Shown piece after piece: positions 3,839 through 61,367 of a stretch of 64,000 bases of DNA. Origin of the DNA: an uncultured Victivallales bacterium (GTDB lineage Bacteria > Verrucomicrobiota > Lentisphaeria > Victivallales > UBA1829); assembly GCA_934661375.1 (NCBI GenBank), contig CAKUJH010000011.1:24795-88794 (forward strand). Reading direction: 5' to 3'. Positions within the stretch are counted from its first letter, which is position 1. Every line of letters starts with the position of its first letter. The position numbers and the translations under genes were made by a program. A model generated the notes under the pieces. That model searched no databases and had not been told where the DNA came from. It worked only from the letters and a program-made list of their open reading frames with translations.

Positions 3839-5392
3839 ATGTCTACTGTTGTTTTTATCGTCGCCGCCCTGCTGGTCGGTTTGATCCTGGGCAATCTTGT
3901 CCATTTCCTGGCGGTGCGCGCCATCGGCTCCAAAACCATGTCCGCCGCCAGCAAATTTAAAATCGACGCGGAACGCGAAGCGGAACGTCTGCTCCGTGAA
4001 GCGCGGGTTACCGCCAAGAGCGACGTCCTCAAAATCAAGGAGGACTTTGAAAATGAAATGAAGGAACGCCGCCGCGAACTTCAGGTTTCCGAACGCCGTC
4101 TGGCGCAGAAAGAAGAGAATCTGGACCGCAAAGCTGATTCTTTCGAAGCCAAAGTCCGCAACGTCGAAAAGAAAGAGCATGACATCGAGCAGATCAAGGA
4201 ACGTCTGCTTTCCAGAGAAGAGGATCTCAAAAAAGGAATTGCCCGTCAGATTGACGAACTTCAGCGCATTTCCGAACTGGACCGCGAAACTGCCACGAAC
4301 ATGCTGCTGGAAAAACTCAAAGGCGAAGTCGAAAATGAATGCGGTCTCATGATCCGCAATCAGGTCGAGGAAGCCAAGCAGAAAGTCGAACGCGAGTCCC
4401 AGCGTCTGCTCATGCTGGCGATTCAGCGTTATGCCGGCGACTGCACCTACGAACGCACCACTGCCACCATTCCGCTCCCCAGCGATGAAATGAAAGGCCG
4501 CATCATCGGACGGGAAGGACGCAACATCCGCGCTCTGGAAGCCGCCACCGGTGTCAACATCCTGATAGACGATACCCCGGAAGCCGTGGTAATTTCCTGC
4601 TTCGACCCGATCCGCAAGGAAGTCGCCCGCCGTCTGCTGGAAAAACTGATTGCCGACGGCCGCATTCATCCGACCCGTATTGAAGACCTCATCAAGAAAA
4701 TCCGCAAGGAAATCGACGAGGAAGTCTTCGATGCCGGCGAAAAGGCTGTGCTGGACTGCGGTCTGCAAGGCGTTCCCAAGCCTCTGATTACCCTGCTGGG
4801 GCGTTTGCAGTTCCGTTTCAGTTTCTCCCAGAACGTGCTGAAACATTCCATTGAGACAGCCGCGTTCATGGGAACGATTGCCGCGGAAATGGGGCTGGAC
4901 GCCCAGAAGGCGCGCCGGATCGGTCTGTTCCATGACATCGGCAAAGCGGTTGACCATGAAGTTGAAGGCACGCACGCCGCCATCGGTGCGGACATTCTCC
5001 GCAAATACAACGAAGCCAAGGATGTGGTCAATGCGGTTGCCGCGCACCATGAGGAAGTGGAAGGCACTTCACTTTATGCGTTCCTCGCCAATGCCTGTGA
5101 CGCTTTGAGCGCATCGCGTCCCGGCGCACGCAGCGAGACTACGGAACTTTATCTCAAACGTCTGGAACAGCTGGAAAGCATTGCCGGCGAATTCCCCGGT
5201 GTGGAATCCTGTTTCGCTTTGCAGGCAGGTCGCGAAATCCGGGTCGTTGTGCAGCCTGAAAAAATTTCCGAAGCCCAGGCGCAGGTCCTGAGCCGGGACA
5301 TCTGCTGCCGGATCGAAAAGGAAATGAACTATCCCGGTCAGATCAAAGTTTCGGTCATCCGCGAAACCCGTGCCGTGGAATACGCCAAGTAA
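3839..5392 (+). CDS. rny: Ribonuclease Y
   Basis: N-terminal TM helix (MSTVVFIVAALLVGLILG), a coiled-coil region, a KH domain (GRIIGREGRNIRALE), and an HD domain (GLFHDIGKAVDHEVEGTHAAIGADIL). An AAGGAG RBS sits 9 nt upstream. The first in-frame ATG at 3809 is less likely to be the start. Confidence 0.85.
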   Translation: MSTVVFIVAALLVGLILGNLVHFLAVRAIGSKTMSAASKFKIDAEREAERLLREARVTAKSDVLKIKEDFENEMKERRRELQVSERRLAQKEENLDRKADSFEAKVRNVEKKEHDIEQIKERLLSREEDLKKGIARQIDELQRISELDRETATNMLLEKLKGEVENECGLMIRNQVEEAKQKVERESQRLLMLAIQRYAGDCTYERTTATIPLPSDEMKGRIIGREGRNIRALEAATGVNILIDDTPEAVVISCFDPIRKEVARRLLEKLIADGRIHPTRIEDLIKKIRKEIDEEVFDAGEKAVLDCGLQGVPKPLITLLGRLQFRFSFSQNVLKHSIETAAFMGTIAAEMGLDAQKARRIGLFHDIGKAVDHEVEGTHAAIGADILRKYNEAKDVVNAVAAHHEEVEGTSLYAFLANACDALSASRPGARSETTELYLKRLEQLESIAGEFPGVESCFALQAGREIRVVVQPEKISEAQAQVLSRDICCRIEKEMNYPGQIKVSVIRETRAVEYAK

Positions 5393-9922: not shown

Positions 9923-10675
9923 TCAATACCAGAGATATGCACCGTTTCCTTTTACCATTGTGGGGATGAACTGCTGCGGTTTCATCAGCGATACACTTCC
10001 ATCCGCCATGGCGGTGCTTCCCGCAAAGGAATGCCGGCGGGCGGCAGTGGAGAACAGCAGCCATCTTTCATCTCCGCCTTTGACGTAGCAGAGATACCAG
10101 ATGTTTTCCACACTGTCCAGTTTGTGGATCAGCTTGTTGCTGTCCCAGTAGGATTCACGGAATTCGATGGTGCGGGAGGGTTCCTTGATGCTGGCGCGTT
10201 TTTTGTTGGATTTTGTTCCGACAGCCCATTTGGGCGTGATACCGCCGGCGAGCAGAGCATTGACCTGATAGCTCAGCAGGGTTCCGACCGGCGGACGTTT
10301 GGCGTTGGTGTCATGGAATATGTTGCTCAGGGAGGTGCTGCACGCCATGACTTTGCCGGTTACGTATTTGTTGTCGCGCAGCAGACTGAAGTAGTTGGAG
10401 TTGTCAGACCACATGCCGAGCGGGATGCGTCCCTGATAATCGTTGCTGTACATGTTGCCAGCCAGGGCGATCTGCTTTGCCTGGGAGACGCAGTTGATGC
10501 CCTGTGCTTTTTCCCGTGCAGCTTTCAGCGCAGGTAGCAGCATTCCCGCCAGAATGGCAATGATCGCAATCACCACGAGGAGTTCTATTAATGTGAACCT
10601 CAACGGTTTACGATTCAAGTATGAGGTGTGAAATATGAAATATGAAATGGATGATAATGCTTTTTGTCTGATCAT
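9923..10675 (-). CDS. Prepilin-type N-terminal cleavage/methylation domain protein (DUF1559-like pseudopilin), paralog 1
   Basis: [26 protein letters not shown] hydrophobic N-terminal helix preceded by a ~24-aa leader. The downstream region is typical of PVC DUF1559 proteins. Confidence 0.8.
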
Positions 10676-10868
10676 GATTCTGTTTCCTTTCGTTCATTTT
10701 GACGGCAATTTTGTTTGCGGCAGATTTCAAGCTGTCTCCTTTTCCTTTCGATCAAACCTCGCTTTCTTTTGCCATAGCAATTTATTGGTTGATGTTGTAA
10801 TTCTGTCGTTTTCTGTTCATTGAATATTATAATATACTTCCCTTGAAAAAAGAATAGACGGAAATGCG

Positions 10869-10989
10869 GATTATGGAATAAAAATCCAATAAAAAGTGAT
10901 ATTTTCTGAAGTGCAGTTGAAAAATGGTTTTACGGTATTATACTATGACAGAAAGCGAGGTGCGCAATGAAGGTCAAAGGGAAAGACGG
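10869..10989. repeat. 121-bp direct repeat, copy A; contains a promoter-like region and the first 8 codons of an AraC gene followed by a premature stop
   Basis: 120/121 nt identical to 12689..12809. The ATGAAGGTCAAAGGGAAAGACGG remnant runs into a stop after 12 codons. Confidence 0.85.
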
Positions 10990-11005
10990 AATCTCATACT
11001 GAAAG

Positions 11006-11998
11006 TTACAGATTCGGTATGATTTTGGGTAGATTCATGAGGTCCATGCCTGTTTTTTGAAATGCCGGATGATATGAATCAACCTGTTTTGGCAGAATTC
11101 TGTCATGATACAGGTTTTTCAGTTCGTTTTGGAAAGTCGCTTCTGATACTTCAGCAAGAGTCGGGTTGGAACAGGTTTGCCAAAGCTGTCCGAGGGAATC
11201 GTAGATGTTTGTCCATGACGCAAAAACAGGAGTATGAATATCAAAGAACTGCAGGAGTTTTTCCGGATTATTCAGATAATACTGTTTCCCTTTCGTGATG
11301 CCGTTGATTGAACGGACAAAATTACCGGCAGTCAGCTCACCCAGAACGTCCTGAATAGATTTCCAGCAGAATCCGCTGCGGTCGACAATATCCTGTATCT
11401 TGCAGGTTCCGGACGTCAGCAGAACCAGAATGGTTTCAACGCGGGCAGAAATTCCCAGAATCCCGCGCATACGGAGCAGAAGCGAAGCCGTGTTCTGCGG
11501 AAATTCCAGAGGTATTTTTCCGGAGTACCGCCGATGATTGCGCAGAAATCCGCAATGAAGTGCGAGAGGATCATTTTTCGGAATGAATTCTTCCGGCTTG
11601 TCTTCTGCATCCCGGAATAACGCAACAGGGGCAGAAATGTCTTTTGCAGTATAATCGTCTGCCGGTTTCTTCCAGCGGCCCGGGGAAGTTTCCGCTGTGA
11701 CGGCTGCCATATAACCAAGCGATGCGGAATCTTTCCATTCCGCCTTGGCATAAAGCGCTTTCAGCCGCTGGATATTGATCTGCGGAGAGTGGATTTGCAG
11801 CCAGTCCAGAATCAGATCGTAAAGCCGCTGGTCATACCGGGCAAAGCCTGCGGAGAATATGAGAAGCGCTTCCGGATCGAGGATAATTTCTGAATCCGGA
11901 ACAGTAATGTGACCTGGAATTCCAAGTGCGGTCCACTGTCTCCACAACAGATTTTGAATCGCATCAAAAAGCTGCTGTTTATATTCCTGCACTGACAT
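11006..11998 (-). CDS. Hypothetical protein (330 aa), possible wHTH near the C-terminus; partner of the NTase-like gene
   Basis: ORF with no recognisable family. Its first 20 nt overlap the upstream NTase-like ORF. GC is lower than in neighbouring genes. Confidence 0.55.
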   Translation of the reverse strand: MSVQEYKQQLFDAIQNLLWRQWTALGIPGHITVPDSEIILDPEALLIFSAGFARYDQRLYDLILDWLQIHSPQINIQRLKALYAKAEWKDSASLGYMAAVTAETSPGRWKKPADDYTAKDISAPVALFRDAEDKPEEFIPKNDPLALHCGFLRNHRRYSGKIPLEFPQNTASLLLRMRGILGISARVETILVLLTSGTCKIQDIVDRSGFCWKSIQDVLGELTAGNFVRSINGITKGKQYYLNNPEKLLQFFDIHTPVFASWTNIYDSLGQLWQTCSNPTLAEVSEATFQNELKNLYHDRILPKQVDSYHPAFQKTGMDLMNLPKIIPNL

Positions 11999-12566
11999 TT
12001 TGCCACCCCAGTTTAATGAACATGTCCTTCAGAATCTCCCGGAATTCAGGAGATATATCTTGCGTCATACACCATTTTGCCGCAGAAATGAGTTCTTCTT
12101 CTGTTGGAGAAAGCTGCTTCAAATCAGTTACGTGATATCCGCCCCGGTCTGCAGATGCAAATGTCTTGAAAAAAATCTGGTCGATACGGCTGATGTAGTA
12201 TACGGTCAGTTTTTTCCCAATAACAACGGCATGAAGTCTTTCTGCAAAACCTGCCGGCAAGCCCATTCGGAACTGGGATGCCGGTCCGTTGTTCAGCCAG
12301 TCGCCGGAAAGATTCATGATTTGGCCGACTTTTTCAGCGGCGCAGACGAGATAATCCGGAAGCGGTTCCGGATCAGCCAGGACTCCCCCCTTCATGATGG
12401 CTACAATGTCAACGTCCTGCGTAGTTCTGGGAACAAGAGACATTGCAATCAAAGCCGAGCCGCCGCAGACAACCAGTTCTGTCTGGGGTGAATCCGCCAG
12501 AATGAGCTGTTCATTCAGCAGATACAGTGCATGGTTCAGTTTTTCTATATCAATGATTTTTTTCAT
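11979..12566 (-). CDS. Minimal Pol-beta superfamily nucleotidyltransferase-like protein (AbiEii/DUF1814-like motif), 195 aa
   Basis: hG[GS]...[DE]h[DE]h pattern: VVCGGSALIAMSLVPRTTQDVDIV, followed by a C-terminal helical domain. Lower GC than flanks. Confidence 0.6.
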   Translation of the reverse strand: MKKIIDIEKLNHALYLLNEQLILADSPQTELVVCGGSALIAMSLVPRTTQDVDIVAIMKGGVLADPEPLPDYLVCAAEKVGQIMNLSGDWLNNGPASQFRMGLPAGFAERLHAVVIGKKLTVYYISRIDQIFFKTFASADRGGYHVTDLKQLSPTEEELISAAKWCMTQDISPEFREILKDMFIKLGWQNVSAGI

Positions 12567-12688
12567 GATTCATATCTTCTATGTGGGTTTTACTATAATA
12601 TAAACTGGGTTTTAATTAAATTCAATTTGAAAATGAATAAATTTCATAAAAAACAATGATTCTGGATCGTACGTTGTGACAGAAAGCA

Positions 12689-12809
12689 GATTATGGAATA
12701 AAAATCCAATAAAAAGTGATATTTTCTGAAGTGCAGTTGAAAAATGGTTTTACGGTATTATACTATGACAGAAAGCGAGGTGCACAATGAAGGTCAAAGG
12801 GAAAGACGG
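12689..12809. repeat. 121-bp direct repeat, copy B; supplies the promoter region and start codon of the intact AraC gene at 12787
   Basis: Near-identical to 10869..10989, with a single A/G difference. Confidence 0.85.
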
Positions 12810-13659
12810 TTTTTCTTTTTCCAAATATGAAATGGAGCCAAGCAAACTGTCCGTTCATACGGAAAGCTGGTTCCGGATGCACGGAAATTATCCGCTGTGG
12901 TTCGGCTGGACATTGCGTTCCATCTGTCGGAAAGGCTGGTATTTCAAACATTACAACGCGACGATCAACAGCATCGAAATACCTGTTTCCGGTACTCTGA
13001 AGGTGATGCGTCAGGACCGCGAATACATACTTCCGCCGGGACATGCGCTGATTCTGCCGGAGGGGGAGGACAATCTGCTGTCTACAGATACTTCGCTGGA
13101 TAAAATCGCTTTCGGGGTGAGCGGTTCGCTGGCAGTGCCGCTGATCCGGTCATTGTTCGGGGATTATTTCCAGATCACCGGATTGAACTGTGCAAAAATC
13201 CAGGAATATTACCGGTGGCTGGCTCCGCTGCTGCGGAAAAGTGATCCTGCGGACATTCCGAAAATCAGCGGGATCGGCATGGAACTGCTGTATTATCTGG
13301 CGTCGCACCTGGACCGGAGCATTCCCGCGGAACTGCTTCGGGCGGTGGAAATCATGAATTACAATTCCGGACGGAGAATCCGGATCAGCGACATCGCCGC
13401 GGAATGCGGTTTTTCGGATTATCAGCTGTCCCGTCTGTTCCTGAAACATTACGGGATGACCCCGAAACAGTACCTGATGCGCCAGAAAATTCAGAAATGC
13501 TGTGCCTTGCTCAAGGATTCGCAGGACCGCATCAAGGAAATCTCCGCATCCGCCGGCTATGCGGATATGCACGTTTTTTCCAAAGAATTCAAGAAACGAT
13601 GCGGCATGACGCCGCGCCAGTTCCGGAAACAGATGCGGGAAAAATCAACTCTCGGCTGA
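12787..13659 (+). CDS. AraC family transcriptional regulator
   Basis: C-terminal HTH_AraC (ISDIAAECGFSDYQLSRLFLKHYGMTPKQYLMRQKIQKCCALL...HVFSKEFKKRCGMTPRQFRK). The first 23 nt lie inside repeat copy B. Confidence 0.85.
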   Translation: MKVKGKDGFSFSKYEMEPSKLSVHTESWFRMHGNYPLWFGWTLRSICRKGWYFKHYNATINSIEIPVSGTLKVMRQDREYILPPGHALILPEGEDNLLSTDTSLDKIAFGVSGSLAVPLIRSLFGDYFQITGLNCAKIQEYYRWLAPLLRKSDPADIPKISGIGMELLYYLASHLDRSIPAELLRAVEIMNYNSGRRIRISDIAAECGFSDYQLSRLFLKHYGMTPKQYLMRQKIQKCCALLKDSQDRIKEISASAGYADMHVFSKEFKKRCGMTPRQFRKQMREKSTLG

Positions 13660-13874
13660 TTGTCCGGTTCCATTCCGGTGTTTGGTGGATGCAGAGCCCC
13701 TGTGCGTTTGTTAGATATATGAAAATAGTTAGTCGTCTCTAAAAACATTGCTTGCTTTTTCCGGATTCAGCGATATATTACCCCGACATCGGAATAAAAT
13801 GTCGGCGTGAATACATGACGCTTTTTTTTGATTCCGGTGTGTTAGGCACAGCTAATTAATGAGGAGCAAAAAAT

Positions 13875-14267
13875 ATGAATAAGACAGTGTTAGTGGTGAT
13901 TCTGCTGTTTATTGCCTGCGGAATACTGTGCGCCCGGATGATTTCCTGGACGCCGCGTCCGGATTTCATCCCCGATGAAGATGCAATCGTTGCCGTGGAA
14001 GTGATCAATGACTTTCTTGCAGCAGTGAAGAAACATGATGAAAAAACATTGAAAAAACTCTGGCATTTTGAAAATATGAAAAATGCGAAGCAGGTCATTT
14101 CCGATGTTTCCGGCGGAGACGGTGAATTTCAGCTGCAATGTGCTGTATATACCGGAAAAAAACGGGACCGGATTCTGGTAACCGGTTTGCTGCCCAACGG
14201 CAGATTTCCGGATATTGAAATGGAGAAGAACGGCGAAAGTTTCCGAATTGTCGAACTGCGTTTTTAA
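13875..14267 (+). CDS. Small secreted/lipoprotein-like hypothetical protein (130 aa)
   Basis: Signal peptide MNKTVLVVILLFIACG with a lipobox-like IAC|G. AGGAG RBS upstream. Confidence 0.5.
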   Translation: MNKTVLVVILLFIACGILCARMISWTPRPDFIPDEDAIVAVEVINDFLAAVKKHDEKTLKKLWHFENMKNAKQVISDVSGGDGEFQLQCAVYTGKKRDRILVTGLLPNGRFPDIEMEKNGESFRIVELRF

Positions 14268-45395: not shown

Positions 45396-46202
45396 ATGAA
45401 CAACCAACAGTCATTGTCATCCATTTCAGATTTGAAGCGTAACCCGTTGCGGTTTACACTGATAGAACTCCTCGTCGTGATTGCGGTCATCGCTATTCTG
45501 GCAGGAATGCTGCTGCCGGCGCTGAACTCCGCACGGCTTATGGCGAAAGGTGCGGCATGTCAGAGCAATCTGAGAAGTCTTGCGCTCGCCGCAAATCTGT
45601 ACACCGATGATTACAATGAATACGTCCTCGGCACCGCCAGAGAATCCGACGGCACTCAACTGAAAATATGGGCGGAAGTACTGTTCCCGTATATGAAAAA
45701 CCGCGGAGTATTCAAATGTCCGCTGGATACCGCGCCGCGTTATCTGGACTATGCGCCGCTGTCCTACGGCCTCAATGAATATTATGAAAACGGACAATAC
45801 AATGCCAATATGAAAAATCCGGCATGGGCATGGTATTACTGGTGGATCGGCGGCAGAAAAGTCAACTTCGCCAAAAACACCGCCAGCGCTTTGTTTGTCT
45901 GCACTGTCAACACGGGAAAAATCAGCGAAGCCGATCAGGCGCTGCTCTGCCGGAAAGACCTCAACTCTGCCTCCGCCTGGTCGCAGGGCGAAATGATGCG
46001 CGCGTACCCCGGCGCACATTATCCGCCCAGTCTGGAAGACAACAAGGGACATTCCGGCGGCACCAATTTTGCTTCGCTGGACGGTTCGGGACGGCATCAT
46101 AAATACAACAAGTATGCACCGTATTTTGCCTCGCCCGCCGGATTCAAAAACAAGGAAGACTGCAAACAGATCTGGTCTCCCCAACCGGATCAGATCAACT
46201 GA
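45396..46202 (+). CDS. Prepilin-type N-terminal cleavage/methylation domain protein (DUF1559-like pseudopilin), paralog 2
   Basis: [52 protein letters not shown]. Confidence 0.85.
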
Positions 46203-60575: not shown

Positions 60576-61367
60576 ATGAACCACCGGCAGCCGTTATCAT
60601 CCATTCCGTATTTCATGCATTATATTTCGCATTCGAAGCGTAAGTCGTTGCGGTTTACATTGATAGAACTCCTCGTGGTGATTGCTGTTATTGCAATTCT
60701 GGCGGGAATGCTGCTCCCGGCTCTGAGCGCGGCAAAAAAGAAGGCGCAGGCGATCAGCTGCATCGGTCAGCTCAAACAGCTCGGCACAGCCATGGCGCTG
60801 TACCGCGGCGACAATCAGGAATACTGGACGATCAGCCGTTTGGGTACGGACAGCAGCGGCAGTGTGCTTTACTGGGTGAATTCCTATGCGCCGTACTTCA
60901 ATTACAAAGAAACGATTTACACTTACGGTACGTGGTCTCCGAAATGGCTGCTTTGTCCTTCCATGATCGGCAGAAGCAGCGATACACTGGCGTTCGGGTG
61001 TTCCTATCCTTACAACTCCGGCTGTTTCGGCGAATCGGATTACTCCAAACTGCGGAAATCGCTGAAACAGCCCAGCAAGGTTCTGGTTCACGGCGACGGC
61101 TGGTATCACCCGAAGGTGGCGGAATACCGGAAGCTCGGTCATATTGAATTCCTCGCCGCTGAACCGAAGTATCAGGTGTGTTACCGTCACAGCCGGCGCA
61201 GCAATATTCTCTATGCCGACTCCCATATCAACCCGGAACCCCCGCAGATGCTGAATTTCAATTACTATAATTACGGCTGGTATCCGTGGTTCAACCGGAC
61301 GCAGGAACAGGAATCCGGCAGTCCGCCGATTGCGCCGTATCTGGACGGATACGCCCCTTACAACTGA
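60576..61367 (+). CDS. Prepilin-type N-terminal cleavage/methylation domain protein (DUF1559-like pseudopilin), paralog 3
   Basis: [50 protein letters not shown]. Confidence 0.85.

Follow-up and report, generated by a model that had tools for sequence, protein, structure and literature searches.

Toxins of the nucleotidyltransferase (NTase) type, among them AbiEii and MenT, are under active study, both for their modification of tRNA 3′ ends and for their antitoxin-induced auto-phosphorylation. The characterised systems are AbiE, a COG5340-COG2253 pair, and MenAT1-4; in all of them the NTase is a DUF1814 protein whose gene follows that of the antitoxin (PMC3985639, PMC7450476, bioRxiv 10.64898/2026.01.19.700257). 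MenT1 (Rv0078A) has been called a COG4849 NTase, and MenAT2 is the Rv0837c/Rv0836c pair with a COG4861 antitoxin (bioRxiv 10.64898/2026.01.19.700257). The conserved residues of MenT1 are T39, D41, K137 and D152, of which T39 is the auto-phosphorylation site (PMC11375011). AbiEii-type proteins carry four motifs: I and II comprise G[GS]...DhD together with an Arg, III contains a Lys in hydrophobic surroundings (KLxAaxxR in COG4849) and IV reads +DxxD (PMC3985639). Here, we analysed two overlapping genes from a 64,000-nt stretch of DNA of an uncultured gut Victivallales bacterium (GenBank assembly GCA_934661375.1, contig CAKUJH010000011.1, positions 24,795 to 88,794), hereafter the window, whose own numbering is used throughout. 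An initial annotation, made from the letters alone, had proposed that these genes formed an AbiEii-like toxin-antitoxin or abortive-infection module. Our comparison with related loci suggests that the pair is probably a compact, horizontally mobile toxin-antitoxin cassette (abortive-infection type) of the AbiE/MenAT kind, with the NTase as the candidate toxin.

Linkage and decay of the gene pair

The NTase gene (11979..12566, minus strand, ATG start) encodes a putative toxin of 195 amino acids (aa) from the DUF6036 family, and the partner gene (11006..11998, minus strand, ATG start) a putative antitoxin/autorepressor of 330 aa from an unnamed family. The 3′ end of the former and the 5′ end of the latter overlap by 20 nt (11979..11998, minus strand), an arrangement that may couple translation of the partner to that of the NTase. 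Both open reading frames (ORFs) and their overlap had been placed correctly on the minus strand by the initial annotation. They were considered real genes because protein searches returned close matches (194 for the partner and 1,388 for the NTase), both AlphaFold2 models were confident and a profile of the partner retrieved 1,876 representatives of 50%-identity clusters from many phyla at E≤1e-3, 1,325 of which reached E≤1e-10. The partner can thus no longer be called an orphan.

The pair proved to be strictly linked across phyla. When loci from metagenome and viral sequences were anchored on the NTase (n=81), the partner lay directly downstream and overlapping in 78 out of the 78 with room for it, two of which carried a C-terminally truncated partner. 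When genome loci were anchored on the partner (n=80), an intact NTase was found immediately upstream in 64-65. The latter set spanned Lentisphaerota, Akkermansia and other Verrucomicrobiota, Spirochaetota, Kiritimatiellota, Planctomycetota, Elusimicrobia, Acidobacteriota, Desulfobacterota and Clostridia. The overlap was also preserved, measuring 20 nt in Lentisphaerota and Akkermansia and 26 nt in distant phyla, and in all related loci examined, as in the window, the NTase gene came first. Identity to the window proteins was higher for the NTase than for the partner in 114 out of 114 loci (median 51% vs 31%). The initial annotation had named two outcomes that would count against a module, namely that both proteins belonged to housekeeping families or that the pair was not conserved together; neither was found.

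Decay was specific to the NTase. In 11 of about 77 partner-anchored loci the NTase was dead or deleted and the partner intact, and no intact NTase lacking its partner was found among the loci examined. NTase remnants or internal deletions were present in L011, L071, L084 and L040, a frameshift or premature stop in L057 and L014, and no NTase was detectable in L017, L036, L044, L063 and L065. These last five deletion lineages had kept the promoter, 5-24 codons from the start of the NTase gene and, overlapping the partner start, its final 8-14 codons, and the resulting mini-ORF should still couple translation into the partner. For instance, L017 (5930-6010) differed from L019 (5430-6020; 90-92% identical) by a 519-nt deletion within the NTase gene. 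These 11 losses follow the pattern expected if an unopposed NTase were harmful and the partner were its antidote, and such NTase-specific decay argues against the NTase being the antitoxin.

The latter assignment would correspond to a type VII, HEPN/MNT-style system with the roles reversed, in which the NTase modifies a toxic 330-aa partner. The NTase-first order and the overlapping genes do recall MNT-HEPN operons, in which MNT is reported to adenylylate the toxin (PMC7641770), and the partner is a large protein whose N-terminal domain is strongly conserved, with invariant Arg, Asp and Trp. However, the NTase was lost or broken in 11 independent lineages with the partner intact, events that should be lethal or counter-selected if the NTase were the antitoxin. 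The partner, as the initial annotation had argued, does not look like a HEPN protein: the Rx4-6H motif and a conserved His are absent, a single one of 57 family members matched HEPN (E 0.016) and the sole recognisable domain is a DNA-binding winged helix. Moreover, the NTase resembles MenT/AbiEii toxins rather than MNT antitoxins. We therefore regard reversed roles as very improbable and keep the NTase as the candidate toxin.

The nucleotidyltransferase, its partner and their promoter

The window NTase matched the Pfam family DUF6036 (PF19502) with 37.5 bits (E 2.6e-9), which passes the gathering cut-off of 23.6 bits, and the same match was obtained for 28 out of 29 NTase family members from many phyla (best E 1.4e-10). 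NCBIfam has no model for the window NTase, and NCBI labels a 70%-identical homologue from Victivallis sp. Marseille-Q1083 as 'DUF6036 family nucleotidyltransferase'. In the literature searched, no mention of DUF6036 or PF19502 was found. The catalytic core, recognised from the translation and the invariant columns, comprises residues 34-53, CGGSALIAMSLVPRTTQDVD (12408..12467, minus strand). It contains the minimal Pol-beta NTase motif hG[GS]x9-13DhD as C34-G35-G36-S37, 13 residues and D51-V52-D53, and also R47-x-T49-x-D51-x-D53. The Pol-beta signature in the initial annotation thus stands, except that the spacer between GGSAL and RTTQDVDIV, given as 11, is actually 7 residues (13 between S37 and D51). 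G35, G36, T49, D51, D53, R127 and D129 were invariant across phyla, and K134, D140, H145 and D148 nearly so.

The relationship to AbiEii is distant. Applying the published motif definitions rather than an alignment, motifs I and II are present together with R47, motif III is approximated by K134-[LT]-x-A137-x-x-x-R141 without the aromatic residue and motif IV (+DxxD), as described in PMC3985639, was not recognised. The PADLOC AbiEii profile matched the window NTase below threshold (E 0.03-0.06 over about 35-44 residues), and PF08843 did not match it at E≤1. Across the family, weak matches were obtained in 21 out of 29 members with the PADLOC profile (best E 4.5e-5) and in 9 out of 29 with PF08843 (best E 2.5e-4), and the AbiEii profile matches were limited to the N-terminal core. 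Judged by these profiles, the NTase is a remote relative of AbiEii/DUF1814 (PF08843) and not a member: the similarity noted in the initial annotation holds, but Pfam places the protein in DUF6036.

The AlphaFold2 model of the NTase, built from a shallow alignment, reached a predicted local distance difference test (pLDDT) score of 89, and its predicted fold matched NTases. With this fold, the catalytic motif and the further acidic residues D129 and D148, the protein qualifies as a minimal NTase of the Pol-beta superfamily, which is defined by an alpha-beta-alpha-beta-alpha-beta core. The values listed against solved structures were 8.0 for the MenT4 toxin, 7.8 for the NTase-like protein 5uvd, 7.6 for the MenT1 toxin, 7.2 for ANT(2'') and 6.7 for the TglT/MenT3 toxin, and we consider the model closest to the MenT4, MenT1 and MenT3 toxins. 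In HMMER searches of the window NTase against solved structures nothing was detectable, with no solved MenT recovered even at E≤10.

A small-molecule or antibiotic-modifying NTase of the ANT/Lnu type, accompanied by a MarR-type transcriptional regulator and unrelated to toxin-antitoxin function, has also to be weighed. A resistance enzyme would have no reason to be strictly coupled across phyla to one 330-aa partner through a 20-26-nt overlap, nor to be repeatedly deleted while its regulator is kept. The placement of the pair between hsdM and hsdS and its integrase neighbours (see below), together with the MenT-type R-x-T-x-D-x-D loop, point to the toxin family instead, and the partner, at over twice the size of a MarR regulator, includes a further conserved domain. 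We consider a resistance function distinctly unlikely. Separately, the only plasmid match was L186, on plasmid pBdHM1 of Bdellovibrio sp. HM001 (4079-5195), where the gene after that of a distant DUF6036-like NTase (25% identity) encodes an unrelated protein of 229 aa, so that DUF6036 NTases may pair with more than one partner family.

The relatives of the partner were nearly all 320-360 aa long and aligned over almost their full length, the 194 close ones belonging to Victivallales and other Lentisphaerota. Its AlphaFold2 model scored a pLDDT of 92 and a predicted TM-score (pTM) of 0.92. A MarR-type winged helix-turn-helix occupies approximately residues 170-245 (11264..11491, minus strand), within which SIQDVLGELTAGNFVRSINGITKGKQYYL, at residues 213-241 of 330, is predicted to form the recognition helix and the wing. 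The winged helix proposed in the initial annotation was thus recovered, in a central rather than a C-terminal position. The N-terminal ~150 residues are helical and include W19, W22, G26, D41-P-E43, R54, R58, D61 and R78. Foldseek searches of this domain and of the C-terminal helices against the PDB gave no match at E≤1e-3, the fold matches of the partner in the PDB being winged-helix proteins only. Pfam, NCBIfam and PADLOC contain no dedicated family for the partner, so the statement that it had no recognisable family is right for these collections and wrong in so far as a large conserved family exists. The AbiEi families (Pfam AbiEi_1-4 and PADLOC AbiEi) gave no match in 57 members at E≤0.1, and the PADLOC models matching some relatives (Csa3, CARF and PDC-M05A) were driven by the winged helix. 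In rare relatives the partner is fused at its C-terminus to Schlafen/AlbA_2 or DUF5677, as in P0290 (780 aa, locus L006) and P0291 (666 aa); in L006 the fusion lies downstream of a short DUF6036 NTase, without overlap.

The predicted NTase promoter lies in the 116 nt upstream of the NTase gene that are specific to the cassette. A promoter scan and a conserved block delimited the promoter and putative operator to 12584..12632 (minus strand), with a sigma-70-like -35 element TTGAAT (12625-12620) and -10 element TATATT (12602-12597) separated by a 17-nt spacer. Two TAAAACCCA repeats (12606-12614 and 12584-12592) are 22 nt apart, the first of them inside the imperfect palindrome TAAAACCCAGTTTATA. 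This 9-mer has just these two copies in the 64 kb, and its core recurs upstream of the NTase in related loci. The promoter block of ~45 nt was conserved in relatives whose proteins are 55-80% identical, and the sequences further upstream were unrelated. The TAAAACCCA block may therefore be an operator bound by the winged helix of the partner. With its conserved overlap and promoter block, the pair has the compact operon of toxin-antitoxin systems, and this operon would be autoregulated.

Insertion polymorphism and genomic context

The interior of the cassette (10990..12682, minus strand) comprises 1,693 nt, namely the promoter, both genes and 16 nt, and is present in some strains and absent in others. 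It is enclosed by two direct repeats of 127 nt with 98% identity and a spacing of 1,820 nt, the only two copies in the window. Copy 1 (10863..10989) duplicates the promoter and first 8 codons of an AraC-like gene, and copy 2 (12683..12809) is joined to the intact AraC-like gene (12787-13659, plus strand). The flanks have a GC content of about 0.56, compared with 0.46 for the interior. At this site, the cassette was present in about 23 metagenome contigs of the same species. In three short contigs from independent samples (L101, L102 and L103), 10325-10989 was joined directly to 12810-13972, with flanks 99.8% identical and a single hybrid repeat whose left end corresponds to copy 1 and right end to copy 2. 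One of these empty-site contigs had been assembled by MEGAHIT at k=141, and a k-mer longer than the repeat argues against assembly collapse. This establishes the 1,820-nt unit as a true insertion/deletion polymorphism, of which the empty allele may be ancestral or may derive from a deletion by recombination between the repeats. The 'mobile-looking context' of the initial annotation needs correcting, as no integrase or transposase gene lies within about 5 kb of the cassette and its surroundings are not visibly mobile. However, the cassette itself is marked by its low GC content, the repeats and its absence from some strains.

The repeat copy downstream of the partner also carries a duplicate of the strong AraC-gene promoter (10917-10944, plus strand; TTGAAA, 16 nt, TATACT, 10/12 matches), which is directed, antisense, into the 3′ end of the partner gene. 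Rfam detected no RNA family in 10500-13000. Integron attC sites were rejected as an explanation of the flanking repeats, which lack palindromic symmetry, have entirely different sequences from one genome to another and include coding ends of host genes. The repeats were likewise rejected as a long terminal repeat, att site or non-coding RNA of the element itself, for only among close Akkermansia genomes are they similar from locus to locus.

Direct repeats of 44-470 nt and unrelated sequence flanked the pair in several unrelated genomes, as at L051 (5202-5325/7108-7231), L054 (5294-5344/7005-7055) and L068 (4269-4312/6095-6138), and further at L050, L086, L047, L014, L018, L029-L032 and L035. 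Those of L051, L054 and L068 include the 3′ ends of flanking genes, and that of L054 overlaps the 3′ end of the partner itself. In Akkermansia and Oligosphaera, the flanking repeats were hairpin arrays with a period of about 170 nt, similar to repetitive extragenic palindromes. Flanking repeats were more frequent than in controls of arbitrary geometry (10/48 vs 0/146), weakly so in a second set (2/31 vs 1/22) and not significantly so against matched gene pairs (11/77 vs 1/35, p=0.10), and the enrichment is therefore taken as suggestive. One reading of these data is that the cassette, instead of being a passive toxin-antitoxin passenger, is a minimal self-propagating element, the NTase and the winged-helix protein with its unique N-terminal domain taking part in its own insertion or excision; in an alternative version, this partner domain would define a new mode of NTase control or a new sensor coupled to type I restriction-modification. 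Self-propagation would explain the long, variable duplications of host sequence (44-190 nt, often with ends of flanking genes) in several unrelated genomes and the clean empty sites of the window species, and we nevertheless hold this reading, in either version, to be highly improbable.

Among the pair-bearing loci, the arrangement hsdM-NTase-partner-hsdS(-hsdR), with gaps of 0-13 nt, was found in at least 12 loci from Verrucomicrobiota, Spirochaetota, Acidobacteriota and Desulfobacterota. The operon at L060:3862-11478 was confirmed by its N6_Mtase/HsdM_N, Methylase_S and HSDR_N/SWI2_SNF2 domains, and other type I restriction-modification loci include L043, L045, L046, L052, L066, L069, L080 and L163. 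A half-size hsdS-like gene was often located upstream of hsdM in these loci. Elsewhere, a tyrosine-recombinase gene (Phage_integrase family) ended exactly 149 nt upstream of the NTase in L072, L149, L154, L155, L167 and L169, a constant spacing that suggests a conserved three-gene integrative unit in that sub-lineage, and still other loci had Fic/DOC or integrase/AAA_25 genes as neighbours. The initial annotation had suggested looking for the pair in defence islands; a fraction of the loci is indeed inside type I restriction-modification operons or beside integrase or Fic genes.

These placements raise the alternative that the partner senses foreign DNA or the loss of methylation and then releases the NTase, the pair being selected for defence and not as a classical addiction module. 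Apart from the tight hsdM/hsdS arrangement, the fusions of the partner to Schlafen/AlbA_2 and DUF5677 fit this proposal, and so does the abortive-infection function of AbiE, the nearest characterised relative (PMC3985639). However, about 90% of the sampled loci, the window included, are outside restriction-modification operons. Such a sensor appears unlikely to us, and it would not exclude a toxin-antitoxin cassette but be compatible with one.

In the window, the cassette is accompanied by genes for an AraC-family regulator, a prepilin-type protein, a GH123 glycosidase, an ABC transporter and a MoxR/DUF58 cluster. The 250-aa neighbour at 9923-10675 (minus strand) carries a prepilin-type N-terminal cleavage/methylation signal. 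Paralogues of its 5′ region (76-84% identity) are located at 45426-45536 and 60594-60764, a pattern typical of the expanded DUF1559-like families in bacteria of the Planctomycetes-Verrucomicrobia-Chlamydiae group.

Proposed function and comparison with known systems

Altogether, the linkage of the two genes, the decay of the NTase and its higher conservation, the winged helix of the partner and the conserved promoter block, the genomic contexts and the signs of mobility in the window support the toxin-antitoxin/abortive-infection reading of the initial annotation, and we consider a toxin-antitoxin mechanism fairly probable on this comparative basis. The upstream DUF6036 protein, a minimal NTase with a Pol-beta fold, would be the toxin and, by analogy with MenT1, MenT3 and AbiEii, it would most likely add nucleotides to tRNA acceptor ends and thereby block translation. 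The translationally coupled 330-aa protein downstream would be the antitoxin. Its central MarR-type winged helix may bind the TAAAACCCA promoter repeats and repress the operon, and its N-terminal, family-specific domain may bind and neutralise the NTase, possibly by inducing the invariant T49 to auto-phosphorylate, in the way that MenA and AbiEi act on their toxins. From the same comparison we infer that the NTase could be toxic and that the pair might have a role in phage defence.

Several points weigh against the proposed cassette. The NTase-first order, which the initial annotation had described as the reverse of AbiEi-AbiEii and which is likewise the reverse of COG4861-COG4849, is opposite to that of every characterised toxin-antitoxin pair with an NTase (PMC3985639, PMC7450476). 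Ordinary metabolic genes surround many of the loci, that of the window among them, and the pair is almost absent from IMG/VR (one match) and from 72,556 plasmids. In addition, no PADLOC v2.0 system model matches the pair, the partner falls into no known antitoxin family and no fold relative of its N-terminal domain is known. The distribution of the pair was patchy across phyla, and within the species of the window its presence was polymorphic.

If the proposal is correct, the pair would constitute a third, widespread branch of NTase toxins, comprising 1,876 clusters at 50% identity and occurring in gut and environmental phyla that have been little studied (Victivallales, Akkermansia, Spirochaetota and Acidobacteriota). 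Experimental handles are provided by the natural 'toxin knock-outs' that preserve coupling, by the hsdM/hsdS placement and by the invariant T49, which bears on whether control by auto-phosphorylation extends past DUF1814.

Compared with HEPN/MNT (HepT-MntA, type VII) systems, which are very abundant and often located in defence islands, the pair shares a minimal NTase upstream of and overlapping its partner. In those systems, the NTase is the antitoxin and the partner a HEPN RNase, whereas in pairs of the window type the partner is a winged-helix protein and the NTase is the component repeatedly lost. The likeness to AbiE consists of a bicistronic operon that would combine a Pol-beta-fold NTase toxin with a winged-helix antitoxin/autorepressor, the motif I/II hG[GS]x9-13DhD with a preceding Arg, weak AbiEii profile matches and an association with mobile DNA and defence loci. 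In contrast, AbiEii has about 290 aa versus 195 in the window NTase, in which no +DxxD motif IV is evident, and AbiEi carries its winged helix at the N-terminus, whereas that of the partner is central, with no AbiEi profile match, and the regulator gene comes second. The operator of S. agalactiae AbiEi consists of two inverted repeats, and the putative operator of the window of direct repeats and a palindrome overlapping the -10 element.

The resemblance to MenAT is closest at the level of the toxin. The solved chain of MenT1 has 195 residues, as many as the window NTase, and T39/D41/K137/D152 of MenT1 (T-x-D, the catalytic Lys and a distal Asp) compare with T49/D51/K134/D148 at near-identical positions, a correspondence of position and not of alignment. 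On the same positional basis, the spacing of T49-x-D51 is that of T39/D41 in MenT1 and of S78 in MenT3 (PMC11375011). The window NTase also resembles COG4849 in its K-[LT]-x-A-x-x-x-R stretch, comparable to KLxAaxxR (PMC3985639), and the pair resembles MenAT2, whose antitoxin is a predicted regulator and far exceeds the toxin in size (PMC7450476). By contrast, the NTase belongs to DUF6036 and not to DUF1814, and its gene precedes that of the partner. MenA1 is a peptide of 7 kDa, and in the COG5340 proteins MenA3 and MenA4 the winged helix is N-terminal, whereas the partner has a central winged helix that follows a ~150-residue domain without known relatives. From these comparisons, the pair falls outside AbiE/MenAT in NTase family, gene order and antitoxin family and domain order, and otherwise appears alike. 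Pfam DUF6036 is a domain definition without an attached function, and the 330-aa partner is absent from any described family. With COG4861 compared by description (larger than the toxin, winged helix) and not by sequence, the pair would belong to the known kind of toxin-antitoxin systems with an NTase toxin, to which it would add another NTase family, an antitoxin of new architecture and a reversed gene order.

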